From: Paecilomyces variotii
Lineage: Eukaryota
Direction: 5' to 3' (one strand)
Assembly: GCA_004022145.1 (NCBI GenBank)
Contig: RCNU01000007.1
DNA: 64,000 nucleotides
Part shown: in pieces, positions 39,802 to 52,131 of the stretch
How positions within the stretch are numbered: position 1 is the stretch's first letter
Layout: every line of letters starts with the position of its first letter
Translations under genes and position numbers: made by a program
Notes under the pieces: generated by a model
What the model saw: the letters and a program-made list of their open reading frames with translations, nothing else
The model's database searches: none
Told to the model about the DNA's origin: nothing

Positions 39802-40924
39802 GACCCTCCTAGTATGACTTTCTAATCTGCTTTTGACCTTCACTTGCATGTATAAATTTCTGAACAAAAGAGGATTATCCGGTTATGTGAACGAAATGAC
39901 AGCCTTGCCCCAACCGACGCTGGACCGTATCGGAGAGGAAAAGGAGAAGAGCGGCCGAGGGTCATTTGTTGACCACTGCCAATACATCCATCATCCATTC
40001 TTCCTATTTCAAAAAGATATTTGGGGTTCTTTATCATAAAAATTTTTTTTCTTCTCTCTGTCTTGTTATGTTTGTTGTCGGCGGCAGCCCATCTAGGATT
40101 GCTCATCACTGGCATTGGTCGATTTTTGAGATTTGAGATTTGTCCTTGCTGGCTCTCTGTGTCCTATATGTCTATGTCAAATATGCTTGGGTGCGAGCGG
40201 ATGTCTCTTGTGACGAATCTCCTTACATTATGTTCGCAAACCAAATCATATTCTGTTTCTGAGCCAACATGTAGCATGAATATCCTCTCTACTCTCTTGG
40301 CTTCGGCTTCACCAAAATTCAAGGCGTTCTAAGCGTCAATTGAAAAGTTGGGTCTCAATTGGAGATGTATGTTTCTGGGCACTTTTCGTTTAGATCGGAT
40401 CCGTGTCTATTAACATTAGTTGGCAATCGAAATAATTCTGACAGTCGCTATATCTTCCATTGGAGATCGTTCAAGAGGTTGAATCCTTTTTGTGTAGTGC
40501 AGTTTCAATAGCGAATACAGGAAAGCCGATATTGTTTCTGATCGTTGCGGTCTTTCCCACAAATTCCGAGGAATACTTACAGATAGGTACTTACAATAAC
40601 TAAATTGAATAGACATCTTCCCGAAATAAGCTAAGTAATACTATATATATATCTAAGAGAATATTACCACATGGTAGTAATTCTTTATCCTTCTTGACAA
40701 AAGCGCCAAGACATGTTTTGCATACGCTAACTTACAGCACCGAACGATACAATCAACGGAAAGAGCAACAACATCATCAAAACGGAAAAGAACTACAACA
40801 ACAGTCACAAGAGAATTCAGAATAACCGTGTCAAATGGAAAGGAAAGAGTCATGACATATCAGCTAGAAACAATGACTCTGCTCCTCGTGCTATGAATAA
40901 AAAAAATCGCCCATCAACAGAATA

Positions 40925-42424
40925 ATGGCCCGCTCAGCAATTATCTACCAAAACTCTGCGAAAACAATATTTCTCGTTGATATCCCTACTTCTATCGCCG
41001 TTGCTCAGGATATACCCATACCTGACATAGCAGAACAAAAAGGAAAGGAAGAAAGCCAAAGTACCAGCGCAACCAGCAGCCACAAAACAGCTAAAAAACC
41101 CCCAACTCTTTTTCGACAAAGACATATCCTCTCCGCACGGCCTCTAAAGACCCCATATCCATCACCGCCAGAGCCGAAGACAGAAGCTGCGCGTAAAAGG
41201 GTCCTAGAACGGATTCCTTCAGAGGAACGTGCTCTTCATGCTGATGTTTTCGGACCTCTTGTCAAAGATGCCTTGAGGGAACTTAAACAGAGTGAGCATG
41301 TGTGGGGTTTGTGGTGTCTTGCTCGATGTCTGGTTGACGAGGACGAAGATGACTCCCGAAGGGCGAAGAGGAGACTTTTGAATGAGCTTGAAGTGTCCTC
41401 TTGTTCCACCATGTCTACTAGGAATGCGACTCAGTCGCCTCCGTTAATCCTATCGCCAGGCGATAATGGTTTTCAGTCCTTATCGGAACTTCAGAATGTT
41501 TTAGTCAAGAACACATCTACTGTCTCAGCGAGAGTGAAAGTGAAAGATTTCCCTGACTCTGGGAACAGGGACGAGATCCAGAACCAGCAATCGGAAAACA
41601 TCACATTTACAATCCCGCCAGAATCGGCCTTTATCCTTAGTACTCTGTCCATGGAGTCGCTGCTATCAGTGTCATCAACCCGACAGAAACCTATCCCGGG
41701 GATACCACCGGGCCAGAAATTCAACCTTATACTTCTAGACCCACCCTGGCCAAACCGTTCAGTTCGTCGATCTTCGCATTATGCAACACATTCATATTCT
41801 GATATGGATACTTTGACGAGGTACATCGAAGCGATCTTACGGAATTATCTACATGAGCCTGGTGGTATTTCTTCCGTAAGACAACAACAACAACAACAAC
41901 CGGACGCCACAGAACCCTATGAAAAGTCCATAGCAGCTATTTGGGTAACAAATACCGCGAAGTCGAGAAAGGCCGCATATGACGCCATGCTAGGTGCAGG
42001 ACTGTCCATTACGGAAGAATGGATATGGGTGAAGACGACGGTGGATGGAGAGCCTGTTTCGCCGATCGACGGTCTATGGCGGAAGCCGTATGAGGTTCTC
42101 GTTATCGGCCAGAGATATCATCCCAGAGAGCAAGAAGGGAGAGATCATGGGAGAGACGGTCCCATGCAGAGGAGAGTTATAGTAGCTGTTCCTGATATCC
42201 ATTCGCGGAAGCCGAATTTAAAGGAGTTATTTGAGATGATTTTCTTTTCCGAAGCATGTGCGCAGAAGGATAGTGAGAATGGGGAAGGGATGCGGAGACA
42301 TTCATATTCATCACGGGTCAAATATTCGGTTCTGGAGGTATTTGCGCGAAATCTCACGGCGGGGTGGTGGGCTTGTGGGAACGAGGTTTTGAAATTTAAT
42401 CAGGAGAAATGGTGGACTGAATAA
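40925..42424 (+). CDS. MT-A70 family N6-adenine methyltransferase, METTL4-like
   Basis: FNLILLDPPWPNRSVRR catalytic motif, AIWVTN, EEWIWVKTT..GEP, RKPYEVL, HSRKP, LEVFARNL..GWWACGNEVLKF; intronless ORF. Confidence 0.9.
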   Translation: MARSAIIYQNSAKTIFLVDIPTSIAVAQDIPIPDIAEQKGKEESQSTSATSSHKTAKKPPTLFRQRHILSARPLKTPYPSPPEPKTEAARKRVLERIPSEERALHADVFGPLVKDALRELKQSEHVWGLWCLARCLVDEDEDDSRRAKRRLLNELEVSSCSTMSTRNATQSPPLILSPGDNGFQSLSELQNVLVKNTSTVSARVKVKDFPDSGNRDEIQNQQSENITFTIPPESAFILSTLSMESLLSVSSTRQKPIPGIPPGQKFNLILLDPPWPNRSVRRSSHYATHSYSDMDTLTRYIEAILRNYLHEPGGISSVRQQQQQQPDATEPYEKSIAAIWVTNTAKSRKAAYDAMLGAGLSITEEWIWVKTTVDGEPVSPIDGLWRKPYEVLVIGQRYHPREQEGRDHGRDGPMQRRVIVAVPDIHSRKPNLKELFEMIFFSEACAQKDSENGEGMRRHSYSSRVKYSVLEVFARNLTAGWWACGNEVLKFNQEKWWTE

Positions 42425-43270
42425 TAATGACTGTGCTGTATAGATATCTAGATACATGTGGACTGTATCTTTTCATTTGTTTTCAAAGTCCATATTCCAT
42501 CGCATGTGGATTGGGAGTAAACTACTTAGCGATATATACTTAACTAGGTCCTCAGGAGTTCAATTATATAAGGGAAGTTAGTCGGACAGGTTATTACTCT
42601 CTAGTCTTTTTTGGACGAAAGGTCGTAGATATTAAGACAGGCCGCTTGTATCCCTTACAAGTACTCAAGAGTAGAAGAGATGTTGGTTTCAGAAGGATAT
42701 ATCCCCGATAAGATTCCAGTCTCTTAGAGTGGGAATTTCCTTATGTTTCATTTATTCAGTGCTTTTCCATCAATAGCTTCTGGAGTTCCCCAGGCTTGTA
42801 TAATGCCAAAAAAAAAGAAGAAGAAGAAGAAGAAAACATGTCTAACTTGATTTTTATAGTCTTGGTATTGAGTGCCTTCGTCTTCGGGGAAGAAAAGCCT
42901 TATCCCAGGTAGTAGAGTACATTAATACTGTAATGTAACGAATAAGCTACTTCAAGTTAATGCTCTCCGATTTGTAATCATTGTTGCATGGTTTTTATTA
43001 ATGATACATGCCACTGACAATATCACCAGTAATATAATGCTTGGTGCCGCGAGCACGCCCTTGAGCGTTTGTTTCAACAAAAATGAATACTAACAGTGAG
43101 CAGGAGCTAAACGCAGGAAGTACTGTTTTGATTTATAAAGTGACAGGCTAGTTAGTTACTCAATTCAGCTGTATTTACTAAGGCGACAAAGGCCAACTAA
43201 CTACCTAGGTATCTGCCAGGTTCCTATTTCTGGGAAGAAAAGTCCAAGACCGAGCCATTTTGATACAAGC

Positions 43271-44323
43271 TCAGACAGTAACAGTGCCATATGAGTGATT
43301 CATCTTCTGCAGATAGTGCTCACCAGCCGTGATGCCCTTATACTTCTGCGGCCGCGTCTCCGTGATACACGACGGCAGCGTTTCCATCACGATGTCGAAG
43401 TTCGCCCCGAAAAAGAACGGGATGGAGAACCGCTCAGTACCAGAGCGGTTCACGGCACGATGCAAGGTAGACACAAAGATGTTGTTAGTCCAGATAGAGA
43501 GAGCATCGCCGATGTTGACCACGAAGGTGCCCTCGATGGGTGGAGCTGGCACCCACACGCCATCTGCGTTCACAACCTCGAGGGCAATCGCACCTCCAGT
43601 CTGGTAAAGGATAGTAAACAGTTCGTGGTCGGTGTGTGCCTGAATCGCAGAATGGACGTCAGGCTTTTCTGCAACCCTGTCCGCGTAGTAATTCATCGAC
43701 AGCATAGACCACGGTCGGTCAATCATGTTTTCGAAGAAACGTTCGTCGAGCTTGAGCGACAAGGCAAAGATTCGGGTGAGCTTCCTGCTCAAGGCTAACA
43801 ATTCACCAAAATACTGGCCCACAGCTGCCTTAAAACCTGGAAGCTCGTCCTCCTTCGGCCACTGGTTAGCTGCGTCCTGCTGAGGATCGACCTTGGCACC
43901 AAACTCGCGGTCAAAGGCTGCTTCTCGACCAAACAAGATGGACTCGAACAGATGGATCCGGTTGGCGCCAGGTTGCTTTTCCTTTTCAAAAGGTGAGTAG
44001 CCCAGATGCTGCTCGTTCCGGCTGCGGGATAAGCGCGTCTTCTGTTCCAGCGAGAGGTCCTTGAAGAATCGACCAGCTTCACCAGTAATCTTCTCCAGGG
44101 ATGACGACGCGATGCCATGATTCTTGATATAGAAGAAGCCCACCCGCGTACAGGCGTCGTAAATCTTACTTGCCAGTGCCTCCCGCTTGCTCAAGTCTGG
44201 GTTATCAATGTCCGTTATGTCGATAATGGGAAGTTCTTGGAAGGTCGTCGTCGTGTCCGGCTCTCGCACCTTACGGGCCTCCATGATGGAGCCAATCTCG
44301 ATCTGGGCGGCGGTGGTCGTCAT
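43271..44323 (-). CDS. 2-oxoglutarate/Fe(II) dioxygenase (DIOX_N + 2OG-FeII_Oxy; IPNS/thymine-7-hydroxylase-like fold), intronless
   Basis: LPIIDI..ACTRVGFFYIKNHGI, NQWP, HxD triad AHTDHE, VVNIGD, STLHRA and RFSIPFF (RxS). Confidence 0.93.
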   Translation of the reverse strand: MTTTAAQIEIGSIMEARKVREPDTTTTFQELPIIDITDIDNPDLSKREALASKIYDACTRVGFFYIKNHGIASSSLEKITGEAGRFFKDLSLEQKTRLSRSRNEQHLGYSPFEKEKQPGANRIHLFESILFGREAAFDREFGAKVDPQQDAANQWPKEDELPGFKAAVGQYFGELLALSRKLTRIFALSLKLDERFFENMIDRPWSMLSMNYYADRVAEKPDVHSAIQAHTDHELFTILYQTGGAIALEVVNADGVWVPAPPIEGTFVVNIGDALSIWTNNIFVSTLHRAVNRSGTERFSIPFFFGANFDIVMETLPSCITETRPQKYKGITAGEHYLQKMNHSYGTVTV

Positions 44324-45371
44324 GGCGAGAGACTTACTATCAGGGAGACAGGACGTTGGTTTCCTCTTTCTTCTGATGTGCTTTCCAGACTCGAATAATG
44401 CCAGCGAAGGAGCTTGATCTTCGTCCCCCCCTAAATATCTTGAGTTGCCGTCGACATACGTTTCATTTTAGCTTCTGGACCATCGAACTGACCTGCATCT
44501 CGTACCTATAGAAGACCAGATCACTGACGATTTGGACATCGGAGATAACCTATCGTTCTTGTTGCCCCACCTTTTGATCGATGGACCAAGCCGTTATCAA
44601 TATATCAATAATGTAGCCGATCTGGCCTTCCCATGGATTCCCATCACAGCTCGAACTCCGCACCCCCACTTAATTTGACAAGGCTAAGTATAATGCGGGT
44701 TCGGTTAGAAGGTAATATCACTATAAGAATTCCTTCTAACCCTAAAATAGGACACGATATATCTGAGTGGCGCTTTTCATGATATAAGTGCTAACACTTA
44801 TAGTAGCAAAAAGGTCTACGTTCAGCTTATCAGTAGCACTCTTATGGAAACCGAGTCTTCGCCATAGTTGTCGAGTTTTCGTGCTAGAAATCAGGCAAAG
44901 CCATTGTCTCAATATGATACGATGGGATCCTTTTTGCCCGAACGCTTATCGATTGCTACGGTGGGGGTACAGGGGTACATGAGTATTTACCCCCGATCTT
45001 CTGTATCACCCCTGTAGCTTGTTGTGCCCTGCTTCTCGACGCAGCGAGTTGTATAGATACTGAATTAGCAGCAGCGGGAGGTCATAACTTCTGATCTAGC
45101 GCTAAATTCAATACTTAAGTGGTCCTGATTGGGATACATAATAATATTGCAACGCCAAAATTATTTGTGCAATATTATTATTGATCTCAAGGGCTGGATT
45201 TCTATTGCATTTGTCCATTTTCATTAAAATAAGTGATCTAATTTATGAGGAAAGCGAAGACATTTGGCTTTCCAAGGTTGACTATGCGAGTTTCCTTATA
45301 AAGATTAGCGTACGATAACTAACTAGCGCTGCATCAGAACTTACCTATGACCTCTCACTGTATTAGTATAC

Positions 45372-45600
45372 TGATAAGACTGTCGAGATAGAGCATGGGT
45401 ATGGCAATAACCGGGATTTTTATTCGTCAGCAGGGAGAATCAGCCAGATAGCTGCTGGTAAAAAGACAATTTGATTTAGCTCTTCGGCGGTAGGAGGTGC
45501 TCATCCATCCTTGTTTAGTTATCTTCCTATCGCCTTTATTGAGTGTGATTCTAGTCATTTATCATTATCATATTCCTCAAAAGTGGTGTACGCGTTATCT
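45372..45600. promoter_or_regulatory. Cluster of HGATAR (GATA factor/AreA-type) sites upstream of the permease; TATA-like run at 45761-45770
   Basis: TGATAA 45372, AGATAG 45386 and 45446, TTATCT 45519, TTATCA 45559 and 45565, TTATCT 45595. Confidence 0.5.
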
Positions 45601-45839
45601 CACGTTTTGGTCGCATTATTACTGAGAATCAGCATATCTGTTATTCTGGTTCAGTGGTTAGCAGCAAGTGTGGTAAAAGATGTCTCGTTGTTTGTCGATA
45701 TTTCATATTCAGGACTCGATGTTAAGGCTCAGAAAGACATATCATTGAACTGCCAGAATCTATATATATATCTACTAGATTAGAGACTAGGCAGTTCTGG
45801 CTGGCTGCCTGCTACACTTCTCAGCGCTGAACATGCAAA

Positions 45840-47357
45840 ATGTCGGACATCGAGAAACAGCTTTCCGAGATCCCTCAACCGGCATCCAAAAGCGAAGTAA
45901 TCACTGGATATACTGAGGAGATCAAGACATACGACTCGCGAATCTGGAAGTTTGTCCGGTTTCTCCATGCCGAGGAGACCGGCGTTGAACGCATCCCAGA
46001 TGACTTGAGGACAAATCACAGCGAGTATTCCATAGGAATCCTCTTTACAGCCATCAACATGGTGTACCTGGGAATCTCTATTGGGGTGAATGGGATTACT
46101 GCCTATGGCCTCACATTCTGGGATTCGGTCTTGTGCATTATATTTTTTAATATCATCGGCTTCCTTCCCGTGGCGTATATGTGTACATTTGGTCCAACAT
46201 TTGGGATGCGCCAGATGGTGGTCTCTCGCTTCTGGGTTGGCTACCAGACCATGAGACTCTTTGCTGCAATTAATTCATGCATTTGCATCGGATGGGCAGT
46301 GCTGAATCTAGTTGCTGGAGCGAATCTGCTGCACACTCTGGGTCACAGCGCATTACCTCCGTGGGCAGCGATTATAATCATGACGGTGGGCACATTGTTT
46401 GTGACTGCCCTGGGGTACAAGGCCATCCACCTCTTTGAACGGTGGGCCTGGATACCAACATTTCTAGTTACATTCGTTATTATTGCGAGAGTTAAGATAT
46501 CAGGCTCATTCTCACCCGGATATATGTCTGCTGGGCGTGCAGAGGCGGGTGCGGTACTCTCATACGGTGCAGCCCTGTTCGGTAATGCGTCCGGCTGGAC
46601 CTTATTCGCCTGTGATTACACCGCATATATGAAGACGACTACCTCAAAATTGAAGCTGTCTTGCTCTGTCATGTTCGGTTGCTTATTTACGACGATGTTT
46701 CTGCAACTGGTCGGGGTATCGGCCGCAGCCTGCTTGAATTCGAATCCACTCTACAAGAAGATGTATGACGAGTTTGGAGCCGGCGGACTCTTCTATGCCA
46801 TTCTGGTTGAGGACTCTCTGGGACGCTTTGGCCAGTTTTGCATTGTCCTACTGGCTCTGACCTTGACTACATGCAACATAGCATGCGTATACTCCTCGTC
46901 TCTTTCTGCACAGGCAGTCTGCTCTAGGTTTCGACTTCTCCCTCGATTTTATTGGGTTCTACTAGCCAACGCTGTTGCGCTAGGCGTAAGCATACCATGC
47001 TACTATCGGTTCACAGAAGTACTGTATGATTTCATGAGTCTTCTCTCATATTTCATATCACTCTATATCGGCATCGTTCTATCCGAGCACTTCCTATACC
47101 GACGTCAACGTGGCTATGCACCGGATACTTACATGGCTCCGGAAAAACTTCCTGTTAGCTATGCAGCTCTGTTTGCCTTCTGCTGCGGGGTTGCAGGCGC
47201 CGTTATCGGTATGAGCGAAGCGTGGTGGACAGGGCCTCTGGCGAAAGCGATCAGTGAAGATGTCCCAGGAGACATTGGGTTTCAATTATCATTTGCATTT
47301 GCATTTATAGGACATGCGAGTAGTCGGTGGGCGGAGCTGAAATACATAGGAAGATAG
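45840..47357 (+). CDS. Purine-cytosine permease family (NCS1, Fcy2/Tpn1-like) transporter, intronless
   Basis: About 12 TM segments; EETGVERIP, GPTFGMRQMVVSR, GW..FACDY..YM, FGQFCIVLLAL, GDIGF, ELKYIGR. Confidence 0.92.
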   Translation: MSDIEKQLSEIPQPASKSEVITGYTEEIKTYDSRIWKFVRFLHAEETGVERIPDDLRTNHSEYSIGILFTAINMVYLGISIGVNGITAYGLTFWDSVLCIIFFNIIGFLPVAYMCTFGPTFGMRQMVVSRFWVGYQTMRLFAAINSCICIGWAVLNLVAGANLLHTLGHSALPPWAAIIIMTVGTLFVTALGYKAIHLFERWAWIPTFLVTFVIIARVKISGSFSPGYMSAGRAEAGAVLSYGAALFGNASGWTLFACDYTAYMKTTTSKLKLSCSVMFGCLFTTMFLQLVGVSAAACLNSNPLYKKMYDEFGAGGLFYAILVEDSLGRFGQFCIVLLALTLTTCNIACVYSSSLSAQAVCSRFRLLPRFYWVLLANAVALGVSIPCYYRFTEVLYDFMSLLSYFISLYIGIVLSEHFLYRRQRGYAPDTYMAPEKLPVSYAALFAFCCGVAGAVIGMSEAWWTGPLAKAISEDVPGDIGFQLSFAFAFIGHASSRWAELKYIGR

Positions 47358-48007
47358 GTGTATGCGCAATAATACTATCAGACCTTTTACTGTTATAATT
47401 TTTTTTATATCGATCTCGTTCGTCTCTTTCTAGATTCCGAGCAAATAGCAATTTTGTAAACAGTCATATAAGATACGTATTTTCTCGGGGAAAGGAGGGC
47501 GTTAACACCAAATGATATAGTATGAAAACAACAAGCTGATGTTTTATTTCTTTTCTATGGACATCTATTGCACGATACAGTATTTGGCTTTGTGGGTCGG
47601 TCTGGTTCCGAACCCACGCTGGGATTTCTCCCGATTGCTGAATTTAAGGGCCTATCTTCATCCTTAAGTCCCAGACTTTATATGCCGAATACAGCTCTAG
47701 GCCATATGATGTATTGTTGCATTAGTCAATATCAGCGTTCGAACATATGAACATTTCAGCTTTTTCCACGAGTGCTTTTATAAGCCCCCAATACGCCGCA
47801 CGCCGTCAGTTTAGATTATAATAAATCCAGCCAGCTCCGACATAGGTTCTTTCTCATCTCTAGCGATATACTAGTGTATATGTATATTCAGCTTACCCTG
47901 AGTAGCGGAACTGGATAATCACGCCTAGAATGGTCTTATGCTTCAATTATCTAGTGAGCGGTTAAATACTCCGTAGGTAAGTTTAGGTAGTTCAGGGAGA
48001 TTTTGCA

Positions 48008-48190
48008 TAGTGTTGGCATCGGGTTGGTTTGAGCCCAACTTAATTTAACCTAATCCGCTAAGATCTTTAGGTTAAGCTTAATTTTGTAGTTTGATCTGAC
48101 AGATTGGGTTTAGAAATTTGACCCAATTCAATCTGTGGGTTAGTTAGGCTACATTTAAAAGCTTAGCCTAACCCAGCGGGTGTCACGATT
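48008..48190. mobile_element. Degenerate non-autonomous DNA-transposon (hAT/MITE-like) relic
   Basis: Begins tagtgttggcatcgggttgg; many GGGTT/AACCC-like motifs in both orientations with internal palindromes; AT-rich; no ORF and no clean TIR pair. Confidence 0.4.
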
Positions 48191-48742
48191 TCCCCTAGAG
48201 AATAGGGGCTGCTAGGACATATAGTCAGTATAACCATGCTTAGGCGTAAACTAGTTATTGTGGTCTTTTAGTAGATCGGCGTCGATTTTACAGGTCCGGC
48301 ACTATTGTATGTACAGTACATATGGTTCGGCATCAAGGCTTTCATATTAGTTAACTTAACTGCCAGATGGCATGATCCTACGGGGAAAAAAAAAAGAAAT
48401 CTATCATCATCCTTGGCTACTAATCGGAAAGTTGCAGCATCCCATACCCGATACCCCGCACGTGTGCAGCATCCGATCCGTTTGCGCAGACTCATTCTGA
48501 GTTGCAAGTGCACGTTGATCTCATGATTGCGAAATGGACAGTTTTCGCGAGCGGGGATATATAAGCCAGGCCGATATTGGAAATGGGTGAATCAAAGAGG
48601 AAAAAGCATCATTAACAACTCTCTATTTTCGAAAATACTGCGCATCACAGGGGATAAAGTCCCTGAGGTCCACCACATTCCATTTGGTGGATGTATACTA
48701 TGCTTCATGTTATCTACATATATCTCAAATCTGACTGTGTAG

Positions 48743-49842
<1,100 letters not shown>

Positions 49843-50361
49843 GATTTAGCAGGTCCTCTTCCGCTCCATATTGACGCTATTGGCCTGTGTATATTCAGTG
49901 GGAATTGTGATACATGCTCACATGTTGGAACTCACCTGAATATCAGATAAAATACGGCTGCGCCGCTGAGATAAACAAAGACGCCTGAATACACGTAGGC
50001 GTAAGTGACAACAATTGTATATGTTTGTCCTCTCATATGTTCAAGTCCAGGACTGCTTGAGCGATGATACCGAACATAAGTACTTCCCGAGGTCTAGAAT
50101 TGAATTATCAAGGAATCATCGTATCCTCCACGCTAAAACTTTCCCCGCAATCCCCATAGTCACGACGGTACCCCTCCTTCGGCTAGCTAATTTTATATGT
50201 AGCTTTTTGCATGCAGCTCATAGTAGGGTTTGTTTTTTATTTTTTAACCTCAACTCCGCAAGCGCAAGATTACAACGCAGCGACACCGCCGCAACTACTC
50301 GGTCTACGGCGACATTACTTTCGACTTGCTTGATCAAGCTGGTGAACAGCCGCGTTGGGGG

Positions 50362-51282
50362 ATGGGTTCAACCGGCAATGACCGATTCAATGAGGAGGCG
50401 GCGACATGGGATAGCGATCCAACCGTCAACAAGGCAAGCGAGGAGGCGTTCAGAGCAATTGTAGATACCTTTCCGCAGCTTAGACAGAATGGAGGTCAGT
50501 AACTACTCTCTTGGACTGAGGTAGTATACATTCCCGCGATTATTTACTTGCACCATGCGTATGGGAAATACGTAGTTTGTTCACCACGTACTGGTCTTCT
50601 CTGTTTTATAACCATTACGCCCGAGCACCATATATAGTAGTCTGCTGACATTTTTCAAGAGGAAACCATTGACGTCTTGGAAATTGGCTGCGGCACTGGA
50701 CTACTGTCACTCCGCATCGCGCCACTCGTGCGGTCTCTTGTCTCTGTCGACGCAGCTCCAGGTATGATCACGGCCCTTGAGAGCAAGCTGCGTGATCCAT
50801 CAGCACCCAAGAACATCACTCCACTAGCTCTTATTCTCACCGATCCTTCTGATCGGAACCTCCCGCCGCAATCACCATCCAATCCAGAGGGCCCGCGGCG
50901 TCAATTCCATTTGATCCTCAGCCATCTGGTATTGCATCACATTCCAGATCTACGCGAGACCTTGCAAACCATGTACGACTGCCTCCTCCCAGAGGGATCG
51001 GTCGCCCTGACAGATTTCGAGGACTTTGGCCCCGAGGCGCGTCGTTTCCACCCTGAGTCAAAGATGGAGGGAGTGGAACGTCACGGTATTCATGCCGAGT
51101 CGTTTGCGCAATTGATGCGTGAAGTTGGCTTTGTCGATGTGGACGTGCGTCCGAAGTGGAAAGTGATAAAGGATGTTGAAAGGTTTCCCGGTGAATGGGG
51201 ACCTAAGAAGCCCTCTGGCGAAGGTGTCACTCTTGAGAAAATGGAATTCCCGTTCCTGCTATGTCGGGGAAAGAAAGCATGA
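50362..51282 (+). CDS. Class I SAM-dependent methyltransferase, intron 50495-50659
   Basis: MGSTGNDRFNEEAATWD..; motif I VLEIGCGTGLL, VDAAPGMI, FHLILSHLVLHHIPD, G.VALTDFE. Confidence 0.88.
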
Positions 51283-52131
51283 ACCTGAGCGAATTGGGTG
51301 CACAAGATGTTCCTCTCACTATCTTCGAAAGGCATCTACAAATTGACTGCTCAGGAATTATGTACATACAGTACTACAATTTCAGGTAAACATATTTAGC
51401 AAATGCGTACATTAATACAGACTGGTCGTCATCTCTGCCTTCTTAGTACGTTGCCGACTAACTGAGGATCTTTCTCAAGGAGGTGTATATGTACTGATCA
51501 CACTATATGGACTATTACTGTACCTGTTCATGGTCAACGCATATTAAGACCGAACATACGAGCCATTGATAAGCGACAGGCCGATGAAGCGGGAATGCAA
51601 GACCAGACAGGGTTCCAAAATAAAGACTTCCGTTATGTACTGGGACTATCAATGTATATGAAGCATACTTTCGATTGCCCCCGGATCCTTAATTAACGTA
51701 ATAGAGGCCAACTGAGTCTCGTTTCTGGTCCCAACCTGTTCGACTAGGCTGTTGATTACCGCTATCTTATTTTATAGAAGCACGACACGAGAACCCAGTA
51801 GTTACATTCGATATGTCCCGACTCCGGAACATGATCGTCAGAAATGATAAAGCCGACATTGACGTCCTGAACAAAGGTGTGATGTTCCCTTGATAAAGCC
51901 ATAAGGTACGGTTATCATCGGATATAGATCTAACAGTGGACCATATCTTATCGGCGCGGAAATTAAATGTGTTTCGATTTCTCCCCGCATTCGTCCCGAC
52001 ATCGGCATGAAGTCCGGTACTCATCTTGGTAGCTTTTCTATTGAGATTATTTTGCCAGGTACTTGCCAAATAATCGCGTAGAGATACTGCGCGCGTTTTT
52101 TCCCACGGAAGGTCTTCAAGCGCACTCAAAC

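Follow-up and report, generated by a model that had tools for sequence, protein, structure and literature searches.

A head-to-head gene pair for a 2-oxoglutarate-dependent oxygenase and an Fcy-type permease in Paecilomyces variotii: a candidate uptake-and-oxidation module for an N-heterocycle

We analyzed a stretch of 64,000 nucleotides of Paecilomyces variotii contig RCNU01000007.1 (NCBI GenBank assembly GCA_004022145.1), hereafter called the window, in which two genes are arranged head-to-head. The first, on the minus strand (43271..44323), codes for a predicted Fe(II)/2-oxoglutarate (2OG) oxygenase of 350 amino acids, and the second, on the plus strand (45840..47357), for a predicted Fcy-type NCS1 permease of 505 amino acids. 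The distribution, linkage and phylogeny of their orthologues support the notion that the pair is a co-inherited two-gene unit. To judge from the sequences, this unit may be a conserved module for the uptake and oxidation of an N-heterocycle other than thymine or the canonical purines and cytosine, a reading for which we consider the chances to be about even. A preliminary description of this locus, made from the letters of the window, had reported two uninterrupted open reading frames (ORFs), the two family assignments and a divergent layout on a spacer of about 1.5 kb, and all of this was borne out by the ORFs, the Pfam matches and the length of the spacer (44324..45839, 1516 bp). The spacer has a GC content of 0.42, compared with 0.537 in the oxygenase and 0.490 in the permease coding sequence. 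The closest database matches of the two proteins are hypothetical proteins of P. variotii, with 98% and 99% identity.

The orthologues of the oxygenase formed 16 clusters (P0002-P0017) with identities of 56-85%, the next matches reaching at most 51%. They were found in metagenome and Logan contigs, Rasamsonia emersonii, Thermoascus crustaceus, three Exophiala species, Phialophora macrospora and Pachysolen tannophilus. The permease orthologues formed nine clusters (55-85% identity; next matches at most 46%) from further contigs, Exophiala xenobiotica, Paecilomyces lecythidis and Pachysolen. Repeating the permease search with a profile of the clade yielded no other proteins, and among 1.84 billion representatives of 50% clusters the permease clade corresponded to a single cluster (P0125, 63%), followed by a match of 43%. 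Linkage in these relatives was read from oxygenase and permease matches whose longest reported contigs have an identical number of base pairs, so that location on the same contig is inferred. Four such pairs were obtained, on contigs of 4650 bp (P0002/P0122; 85% and 85% identity), 4341 bp (P0004/P0123; 72% and 70%) and 47,696 bp (P0009/P0127; 61% and 62%), and on a scaffold of 1,128,252 bp from Pachysolen tannophilus (P0016/P0130; 57% and 55%). The two contigs of 4650 and 4341 bp have room for these two genes only, which limits the gap between them to about 1.6-2.0 kb.

Quick maximum-likelihood trees of the two proteins were congruent. The permease clade (10 sequences) had a Shimodaira-Hasegawa-like approximate likelihood ratio test (SH-aLRT) support of 100 and a stem branch of 1.07, with Pachysolen as sister to the rest (94), and the oxygenase clade (17 sequences) had a support of 100 and a stem of 0.6, again with Pachysolen as sister (92). 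After the separation of Pachysolen, each tree divides into one group of the Chaetothyriales type and one of the Eurotiales type. The identities of the Pachysolen proteins (55-57%) are not far from the 59-63% seen between Eurotiales and Chaetothyriales. A transfer of the pair would fit the position of this yeast, as would an ancient origin followed by massive loss. It is on the four equal-sized contigs, the congruent trees and the narrow, patchy distribution that we base the proposal of a co-inherited module.

The oxygenase call rests on the ORF list, the Pfam domains, relatives in the Protein Data Bank (PDB) and an alignment of the 16 orthologues. The protein carries the domains DIOX_N (5.5e-23, 82.3 bits, cut-off 27.3) and 2OG-FeII_Oxy (8.9e-22, 77.8 bits, cut-off 23), and its catalytic core, encoded at 43424..43636 on the minus strand, consists of the iron triad His230, Asp232 and His288, the residues Arg298 and Ser300 that would bind the C5-carboxylate of 2OG, and Phe304 just downstream. 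All 16 aligned orthologues share H230, D232, R298 and S300, and 15 of them also H288, which is replaced by Arg in the Rasamsonia sequence. With its HxD...H triad and RxS motif, the protein is by sequence an isopenicillin N synthase (IPNS)-like Fe(II)/2OG oxygenase. Its solved relatives are headed by 9ovh (1e-37), the thymine-7-hydroxylase (T7H) of Neurospora (5c3p, 5.1e-33) and a Pseudomonas IPNS-family protein (6jyv, 1.2e-31), these three all near 30% identity, and also include alkaloid, flavonoid, gibberellin and penicillin enzymes. The entry 9ovh reportedly stems from a paper on the ancestral reconstruction of ethylene-forming enzymes and says nothing on the substrate. The AlphaFold model of the oxygenase was poor, with a predicted local distance difference test (pLDDT) score of 63.6, and the ESM Atlas returned only generic "Fe2OG dioxygenase" clusters.

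The comparison with T7H was made residue by residue through the midline of the HMMER alignment, in which the target letters are not printed. The iron ligands H214, D216 and H271 of T7H correspond to H230, D232 and H288, Y194 to Y213, the 2OG ligands R286 and S288 to R298 and S300, and the stacking Phe292 to F304. Conversely, Arg190 is replaced by Ser209 (S, Q, A or G within the clade), Tyr217 by His233, Asn87 by His106 and Asn294 by Gly306. In the structural report on T7H (PMC4787775), where the roles of these residues are assigned, Arg190 is vital for catalysis and Phe292 provides stacking. Because the 2OG ligands and the stacking Phe are kept while Arg190 and the others are replaced, the protein appears competent for 2OG chemistry, with a pocket that could still sandwich a flat ring, but is not a T7H. 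An identification as T7H was also discarded at the level of orthology, given that the match to 5c3p is no better than those to 9ovh or 6jyv; among the residues Arg190, Tyr217 and Phe292, only the last has been retained.

The permease was recognized from the ORF list, its match to PF02133 (Transp_cyt_pur; cytosine/purine/uracil/thiamine/allantoin permeases; 8.1e-39, 134.1 bits, cut-off 23.5) and an end-to-end alignment with 23 relatives. It shares 38-46% identity with proteins named Fcy2p, FCY21 or purine-cytosine permease and 30% with a Cryptococcus cytosine permease. Searches of the PDB with the sequence and with a profile gave no match. The AlphaFold model (pLDDT 78.9, predicted TM-score 0.81) has its nearest folds in CodB (7qoa, TMt 0.79) and Mhp1 (4d1a, TMt 0.72; also 2jln), with a probability of 1.00, although the sequence identity to these proteins is only 14-16%. 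Breaks in the modeled helices at about residues 74-75 and 252-253 fit the unwound transmembrane helices (TM) 1 and 6, which PMC3951388 lists as a feature of the NCS1 fold. Together with PF02133, the predicted LeuT-type fold places the protein in the Fcy/CodB branch of the NCS1 family.

The substrate-binding site of this permease combines conserved and altered parts. Positions were assigned to FcyB numbering by residue spacing, the distance between the two Trp residues being 101 compared with 100 in FcyB and that from Trp to the TM8 motif 92 compared with 91. W152 and W253 are invariant in the 24 aligned sequences and N156 is found in at least 90% of them; these residues match W159, W259 and N163 of FcyB, so that the stacking Trp pair (one in TM3, one in TM6) and the TM3 Asn of purine-cytosine permeases are kept. 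In a published comparison, W159, N163 and W259 are critical for FcyB, the binding site of NCS1 members has Asn350, Pro353 and Asn354 among its main components, and FcyB loses transport when Asn354 is mutated (PMC3951388). The latter three residues are not kept in the P. variotii protein. Codons 345-349 (46872..46886, plus strand), located within TM8, a long helix of the model (residues 329-360), specify C-N-I-A-C instead of the N-N-I-P-N of FcyB. Fourteen of 15 canonical relatives have N-N-[I/V/C]-P-N at this site and the remaining one, from Cryptococcus, has N-N-T-V-N, whereas the clade members on shared contigs and that of E. xenobiotica have [C/A]-N-[IV]-A-C; a short JGI contig has T-S-V-A-C. 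Across 110 representatives of the family, position 349 is Asn in 48, T in 18, S in 15, G in 13 and Cys in 1. An assignment as a purine-cytosine permease with the TM8 residues Asn350, Pro353 and Asn354 was thus set aside, the protein having C345, A348 and C349. Considering this replaced motif and the very long stem branch, the specificity has probably changed, and the permease is probably not a standard purine-cytosine carrier. As a separate observation, P0125 and P0126 (Paecilomyces lecythidis and a Logan contig of 7212 bp) form a long-branched subclade with the TM8 motif G-N-I-P-S, which may represent a duplicate that was freed from the pairing and changed its specificity again.

To follow transcription, contigs of four public runs (X1, X2, X3 and X7) were aligned to positions 40000-52000. 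The spliced joints 49068>49128 (59 nt, GT..AG) and 50492>50658 identify X1 as RNA-derived. X2 and X3 are metatranscriptomes labelled "food fermentation metagenome" that contain a strain 95-99% related. A single unspliced X1 contig of 1249 nt spans the oxygenase gene (43207..44455, minus strand) with 0 differences and 0 gaps, which corresponds to a 5' untranslated region (UTR) of at least 132 nt and a 3' UTR of at least 64 nt. Pieces of the permease gene are also present in X1, for example 46622-47152. The X2 and X3 contigs cover the oxygenase gene at 43608-44989 and 43608-44740 and the permease gene at 45720-46051, 46092-47530 and 46354-47530, all without joints. Since RNA-derived contigs from these three runs cover both genes without joints, both are transcribed and intronless. 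One X2 contig reaches 666 nt upstream of the oxygenase ATG, beyond the end of the X1 contig at 44455; this extension may stem from transcription starting further upstream, from a non-coding transcript that overlaps the gene or from carried-over DNA. X7 had no contig over either gene and X3 none over the decarboxylase gene, but gaps in contig data carry no weight as evidence.

Between the observed transcript ends, about 730-1265 bp remain as promoter space. The 1516-bp spacer contains 15 copies of HGATAR, which we take to be the AreA-type GATA-factor site, and ranks first among 250 sliding windows over the 64 kb (mean of 5.1). This count, the highest in the window, hints at nitrogen control, probably by a GATA factor of the AreA type. 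The spacer has no UaY-type TCGG-N6-CCGA site and only two CGG-Nx-CGG strings. A search of Rfam with 42400-48800 (E<=1) returned no match, and hence no TPP or other riboswitch was detected in this interval. Near the middle of the spacer there is a 23-nt inverted repeat (45129-45190; 87% complementary, 16-nt loop), a candidate regulator site or AT-rich hairpin.

These observations would be consistent with the following mechanism. A small planar N-heterocycle would be imported by the permease, which presumably works by proton symport, as related fungal carriers do. Since the TM8 portion of its binding site is remodeled, the cargo of the permease would be something other than adenine, guanine, hypoxanthine or cytosine, the standard substrates of Fcy carriers. 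A cytosolic oxygenase would then hydroxylate or oxidatively demethylate the imported compound as the first committed step of its salvage or catabolism, and both genes, read outward from one spacer, would respond to an AreA-type factor. The preliminary description had argued along similar lines for a co-regulated two-gene unit and a possible nitrogen source. The unit is backed by the shared contigs, the congruent trees and the occurrence of RNA contigs for both genes in the same three runs, and the location of the HGATAR-richest stretch of the window in the spacer fits the use of a nitrogen source.

Several points weigh against the proposed module. The contig depths cannot rank expression and do not establish that the pair is co-regulated, and the enrichment of HGATAR is modest, the 15 sites being equaled in 6 of 500 approximately dinucleotide-preserving shuffles. 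When the pair was searched for across fungi, as had been suggested in the preliminary description, the four pairs on equal-sized contigs were accompanied by 11 of the 16 oxygenase clusters for which no permease link was seen by contig or species. This set includes two contigs of more than 10 kb (P0003, 11,588 bp; P0007, 10,533 bp) and the proteins of Rasamsonia, Thermoascus, E. spinifera, E. sideris and Phialophora; given that the 8000 top word-sharing permease candidates were scored, neither the absence nor the presence of a permease is established there. Within the permease clade, P0125 and P0126 have no visible oxygenase partner. A shared scaffold of 1.1 Mb is weak evidence for linkage in Pachysolen, and the head-to-head orientation and the exact spacing were read in the P. 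variotii window alone, the linkage in relatives being deduced from equal sizes. No NCS1 gene was detected by tblastn with the permease in any of 80 metagenomic loci carrying distant relatives of the oxygenase. Finally, TM8 varies widely across Fcy-like paralogues, so that the altered motif would signal a different specificity but not which one; the sequences name no substrate and neither support nor refute the substrate classes put forward in the preliminary description (a modified or methylated nucleobase, or a pyridine-type molecule).

Next after the module ranks the possibility that the two genes are neighbors without functional coupling. In that case the permease would scavenge nucleobases at a low level and with a shifted specificity, comparable to the cryptic Fcy paralogues of Aspergillus, the oxygenase would belong to an unrelated pathway and their linkage would be inherited synteny. 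We regard this as rather unlikely. It would account for the oxygenase clusters and the two permeases (P0125, P0126) that lack a visible partner; of the four shared contigs, three belong to fairly close relatives or do not reveal how far apart the genes lie, and IPNS-like oxygenases act on very many types of substrate. However, the same narrow and patchy distribution and the same tree shape of both proteins, including the out-of-place yeast Pachysolen, speak against it, as does the linkage at 61-62% identity on the 47.7-kb contig, general synteny between fungal orders being expected to be poor. The long stem branches of both proteins are also what joint specialization would give. A regulatory or tailoring role is still far less probable, and we assign to it the lowest likelihood of the alternatives considered: in this case the oxygenase would act on a protein or a secondary metabolite, with the permease as its target or as the importer of a precursor. 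Oxygenases of this family are common tailoring enzymes, and Isp7 of Schizosaccharomyces pombe, named in the preliminary description, controls permease expression, but backbone or biosynthetic genes are missing nearby, where housekeeping genes lie to the left and unrelated small-molecule enzymes to the right, and the 4.3-4.7-kb contigs of the relatives fit just the two genes.

Two further alternatives specify the substrate. Neurospora and Rhodotorula are the classical species of thymidine salvage, and a salvage of thymine or other 5-methylpyrimidines would require that the permease imports thymine or 5-methylcytosine and that the oxygenase oxidizes the methyl group stepwise in the manner of T7H. 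T7H, which acts on a free nucleobase, has the same two Pfam domains as the oxygenase, is its second-best solved relative and shares with it the iron ligands, the Arg, Ser and Tyr that bind 2OG and the stacking Phe; in addition, an Amidohydro_2 decarboxylase gene is located 1.4 kb downstream of the permease gene. The identity of about 30%, E-values like those of unrelated family members and the four replaced residues nevertheless speak against such a function, and so does the absence of Neurospora and Rhodotorula from the oxygenase clade among the 120 matches listed. The decarboxylase in question is an orthologue of 2,3-dihydroxybenzoate decarboxylase (5.9e-130 to PDB 6m53), its match to iso-orotate decarboxylase of the same superfamily being weak (1.1e-6). 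As this is the sole Amidohydro_2 gene nearby, the iso-orotate decarboxylase that partners T7H is not at the locus, a pathway of the two enzymes was ruled out there, and thymine salvage as a whole seems very unlikely. A module for a pyridine ring, hydroxynicotinate-like or vitamin-B6-like, would combine an oxygenase like HxnY with a permease like the B6 carrier Tpn1. The hxn cluster of Aspergillus nidulans indeed offers a DIOX_N-type oxygenase for an N-heteroaromatic ring, clustered transporters, co-regulation and GATA-factor nitrogen repression, and an oxygenase relative with 40% identity (P0070) is named hxnY. HxnY, which has the DIOX_N and 2OG-FeII_Oxy domains, has been proposed to turn 6-hydroxynicotinate into 2,5-dihydroxypyridine, and its cluster is controlled by AreA (PMC5746545; bioRxiv 10.1101/2021.08.17.456622). 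Yet the hxnY-named protein, the single relative by which the clade of HxnY was judged, occupies a different and well separated part of the tree; the hxn cluster uses transporters of the major facilitator superfamily (MFS) rather than NCS1 permeases and comprises 6-11 genes with a regulator of their own, compared with two genes here. The 30 ORFs of the window that were scanned for domains contained no Oxidored_FMN domain, Cys2His2 regulator or molybdenum-cofactor (MOCO) hydroxylase, and membership of the locus in an hxn cluster was discarded because domains of the hxnS/T/R/P/Z type were missing among them. Furthermore, no sequence named Tpn1 was present among the permease relatives retrieved. 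We consider this alternative unlikely, albeit less so than thymine salvage.

A precedent for the hydroxylation of a purine by a fungal 2OG oxygenase in nitrogen catabolism is XanA of A. nidulans, which belongs to another branch of the superfamily (TauD-like). PMC5746545 describes it as a xanthine dioxygenase that depends on alpha-ketoglutarate.

We also inspected the genetic context of distant bacterial or metagenomic relatives of the oxygenase. The metagenome scan with the oxygenase alignment kept 80 of 470 loci, which encode relatives with 33-42% identity and include no orthologues. The survey of flanking genes covered 34 of the 44 longer loci and 70 of 151 flanking ORFs. An ABC binding protein of the PnrA/Bmp type adjoins the oxygenase relative (37-40% identity) in 4 of the 34 loci (L010, L015, L029 and L048), and paired BPD_transp_2 permeases do so in two further loci (L024 and L064). 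PnrA-type proteins bind purine nucleosides. L029 also contains an Amidohydro_1 gene, L010 and L015 an MFS gene and L048 two tandem DIOX_N oxygenases, while the remaining loci show mixed contexts with betaine-type binding proteins, glutamine-synthetase-like genes and creatininase. By analogy, the wider oxygenase family may often be tied to the uptake of nitrogenous small molecules, which we treat as a lead and nothing more.

The left part of the window carries housekeeping genes (DBR1, Rpr2, ZPR1, Sen54, cyclophilin, YL1, a PUF protein and an MT-A70 methyltransferase). On its right side the pair is flanked by genes for the decarboxylase, a methyltransferase, a fragment of a zinc alcohol dehydrogenase and an MFS transporter, with UCH and DcpS beyond them. 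The preliminary description had stressed that the pair lacks introns while almost all neighbors have them, had noted transposon-like relics around it and had suggested its acquisition as a unit. The first statement holds for the pair and for the two right neighbors, in which RNA contigs reveal one intron each, but the left neighbor, the MT-A70 gene (40925-42424), is covered by an unspliced RNA contig of 1531 nt. As this neighbor is intronless as well, the absence of introns cannot serve as a mark of acquisition. Composition gave no sign of foreign origin or recent transfer either: the GC content at third codon positions (GC3) is 0.667 in the oxygenase and 0.530 in the permease gene, within or just above the range of 13 other ORFs of the window (0.44-0.66). 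An acquisition of the pair as a unit is conceivable, given that Pachysolen sits with the Eurotiomycetes. The relics could not be confirmed, since the repeat search of 40000-52000 yielded short chance-level families only, none bracketing the pair, and Rfam no match. A Starship or other mobile-element context was dismissed in view of the housekeeping left flank and the 30 scanned ORFs, none of which encodes a transposase or a captain-type or Starship-type protein.

Some features of the flanks are worth recording. An X3 contig of the related strain joins 42537 to 43210 with 12 other nucleotides in place of 672 bp (42538-43209). This AT-rich segment separates the MT-A70 gene from the 3' end of the oxygenase gene, has short similar strings at its edges (TTAACTAGG / CCTAGG) and is an indel or replacement polymorphism, the sole sign of instability at the locus. 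The MT-A70-family protein has 499 amino acids and a DPPW motif, and its gene is transcribed; an adenine-N6 methyltransferase beside an oxygenase and a nucleobase-type permease is suggestive, although the gene sits among housekeeping genes and is too large for the 4.3-4.7-kb contigs of the relatives. The decarboxylase gene (48767-49842) has two exons, and its 59-nt GT..AG intron (49069-49127) was confirmed in RNA contigs of X1 and X7. The X1 contig with this intron also skips 51 nt at 49884-49934 with CT..AC ends, equivalent to a GT..AG intron on the opposite strand, and may thus derive from an antisense transcript that runs convergently or from merging during assembly. The methyltransferase gene (Methyltransf_23; 50492-50658 and 50764-51282) has a 165-nt intron in an X1 contig and a high contig depth in X1.

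The combination of a transporter and a first catabolic enzyme on a divergent promoter is a familiar theme. For the pairing itself, our literature search retrieved no description, and the same applied to this locus, the six orthologue locus tags and work on horizontal gene transfer or nucleobases in P. variotii concerning it. In a more far-reaching version of the module, which we consider possible but doubtful, the pair would be a self-contained and occasionally horizontally transferred nutrient cassette of Eurotiomycete molds, black yeasts and Pachysolen, in which an Fcy carrier without the canonical Asn, Pro and Asn of TM8 has co-evolved with a dedicated 2OG oxygenase. The two would open a new fungal route for an N-heterocycle of a non-canonical kind, such as a base methylated at N or C or a pyridine or pyrimidine with substituents. 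Should the two genes be unrelated, the locus would be ordinary. If the cassette is real, it would provide the first physiological substrate for a "cryptic" clade of Fcy-like transporters and a new nucleobase-type oxygenase activity. Many fungal Fcy-like NCS1 paralogues and IPNS-like oxygenases are without a known substrate, and a physical tie between members of the two families offers a functional handle on both, as the substrate of the oxygenase should equal the cargo of the permease. A modified base or heterocycle as substrate would add a step to fungal nitrogen scavenging, represent a natural experiment on TM8 and NCS1 specificity and supply a small, easily expressed oxygenase for the functionalization of heterocycles.

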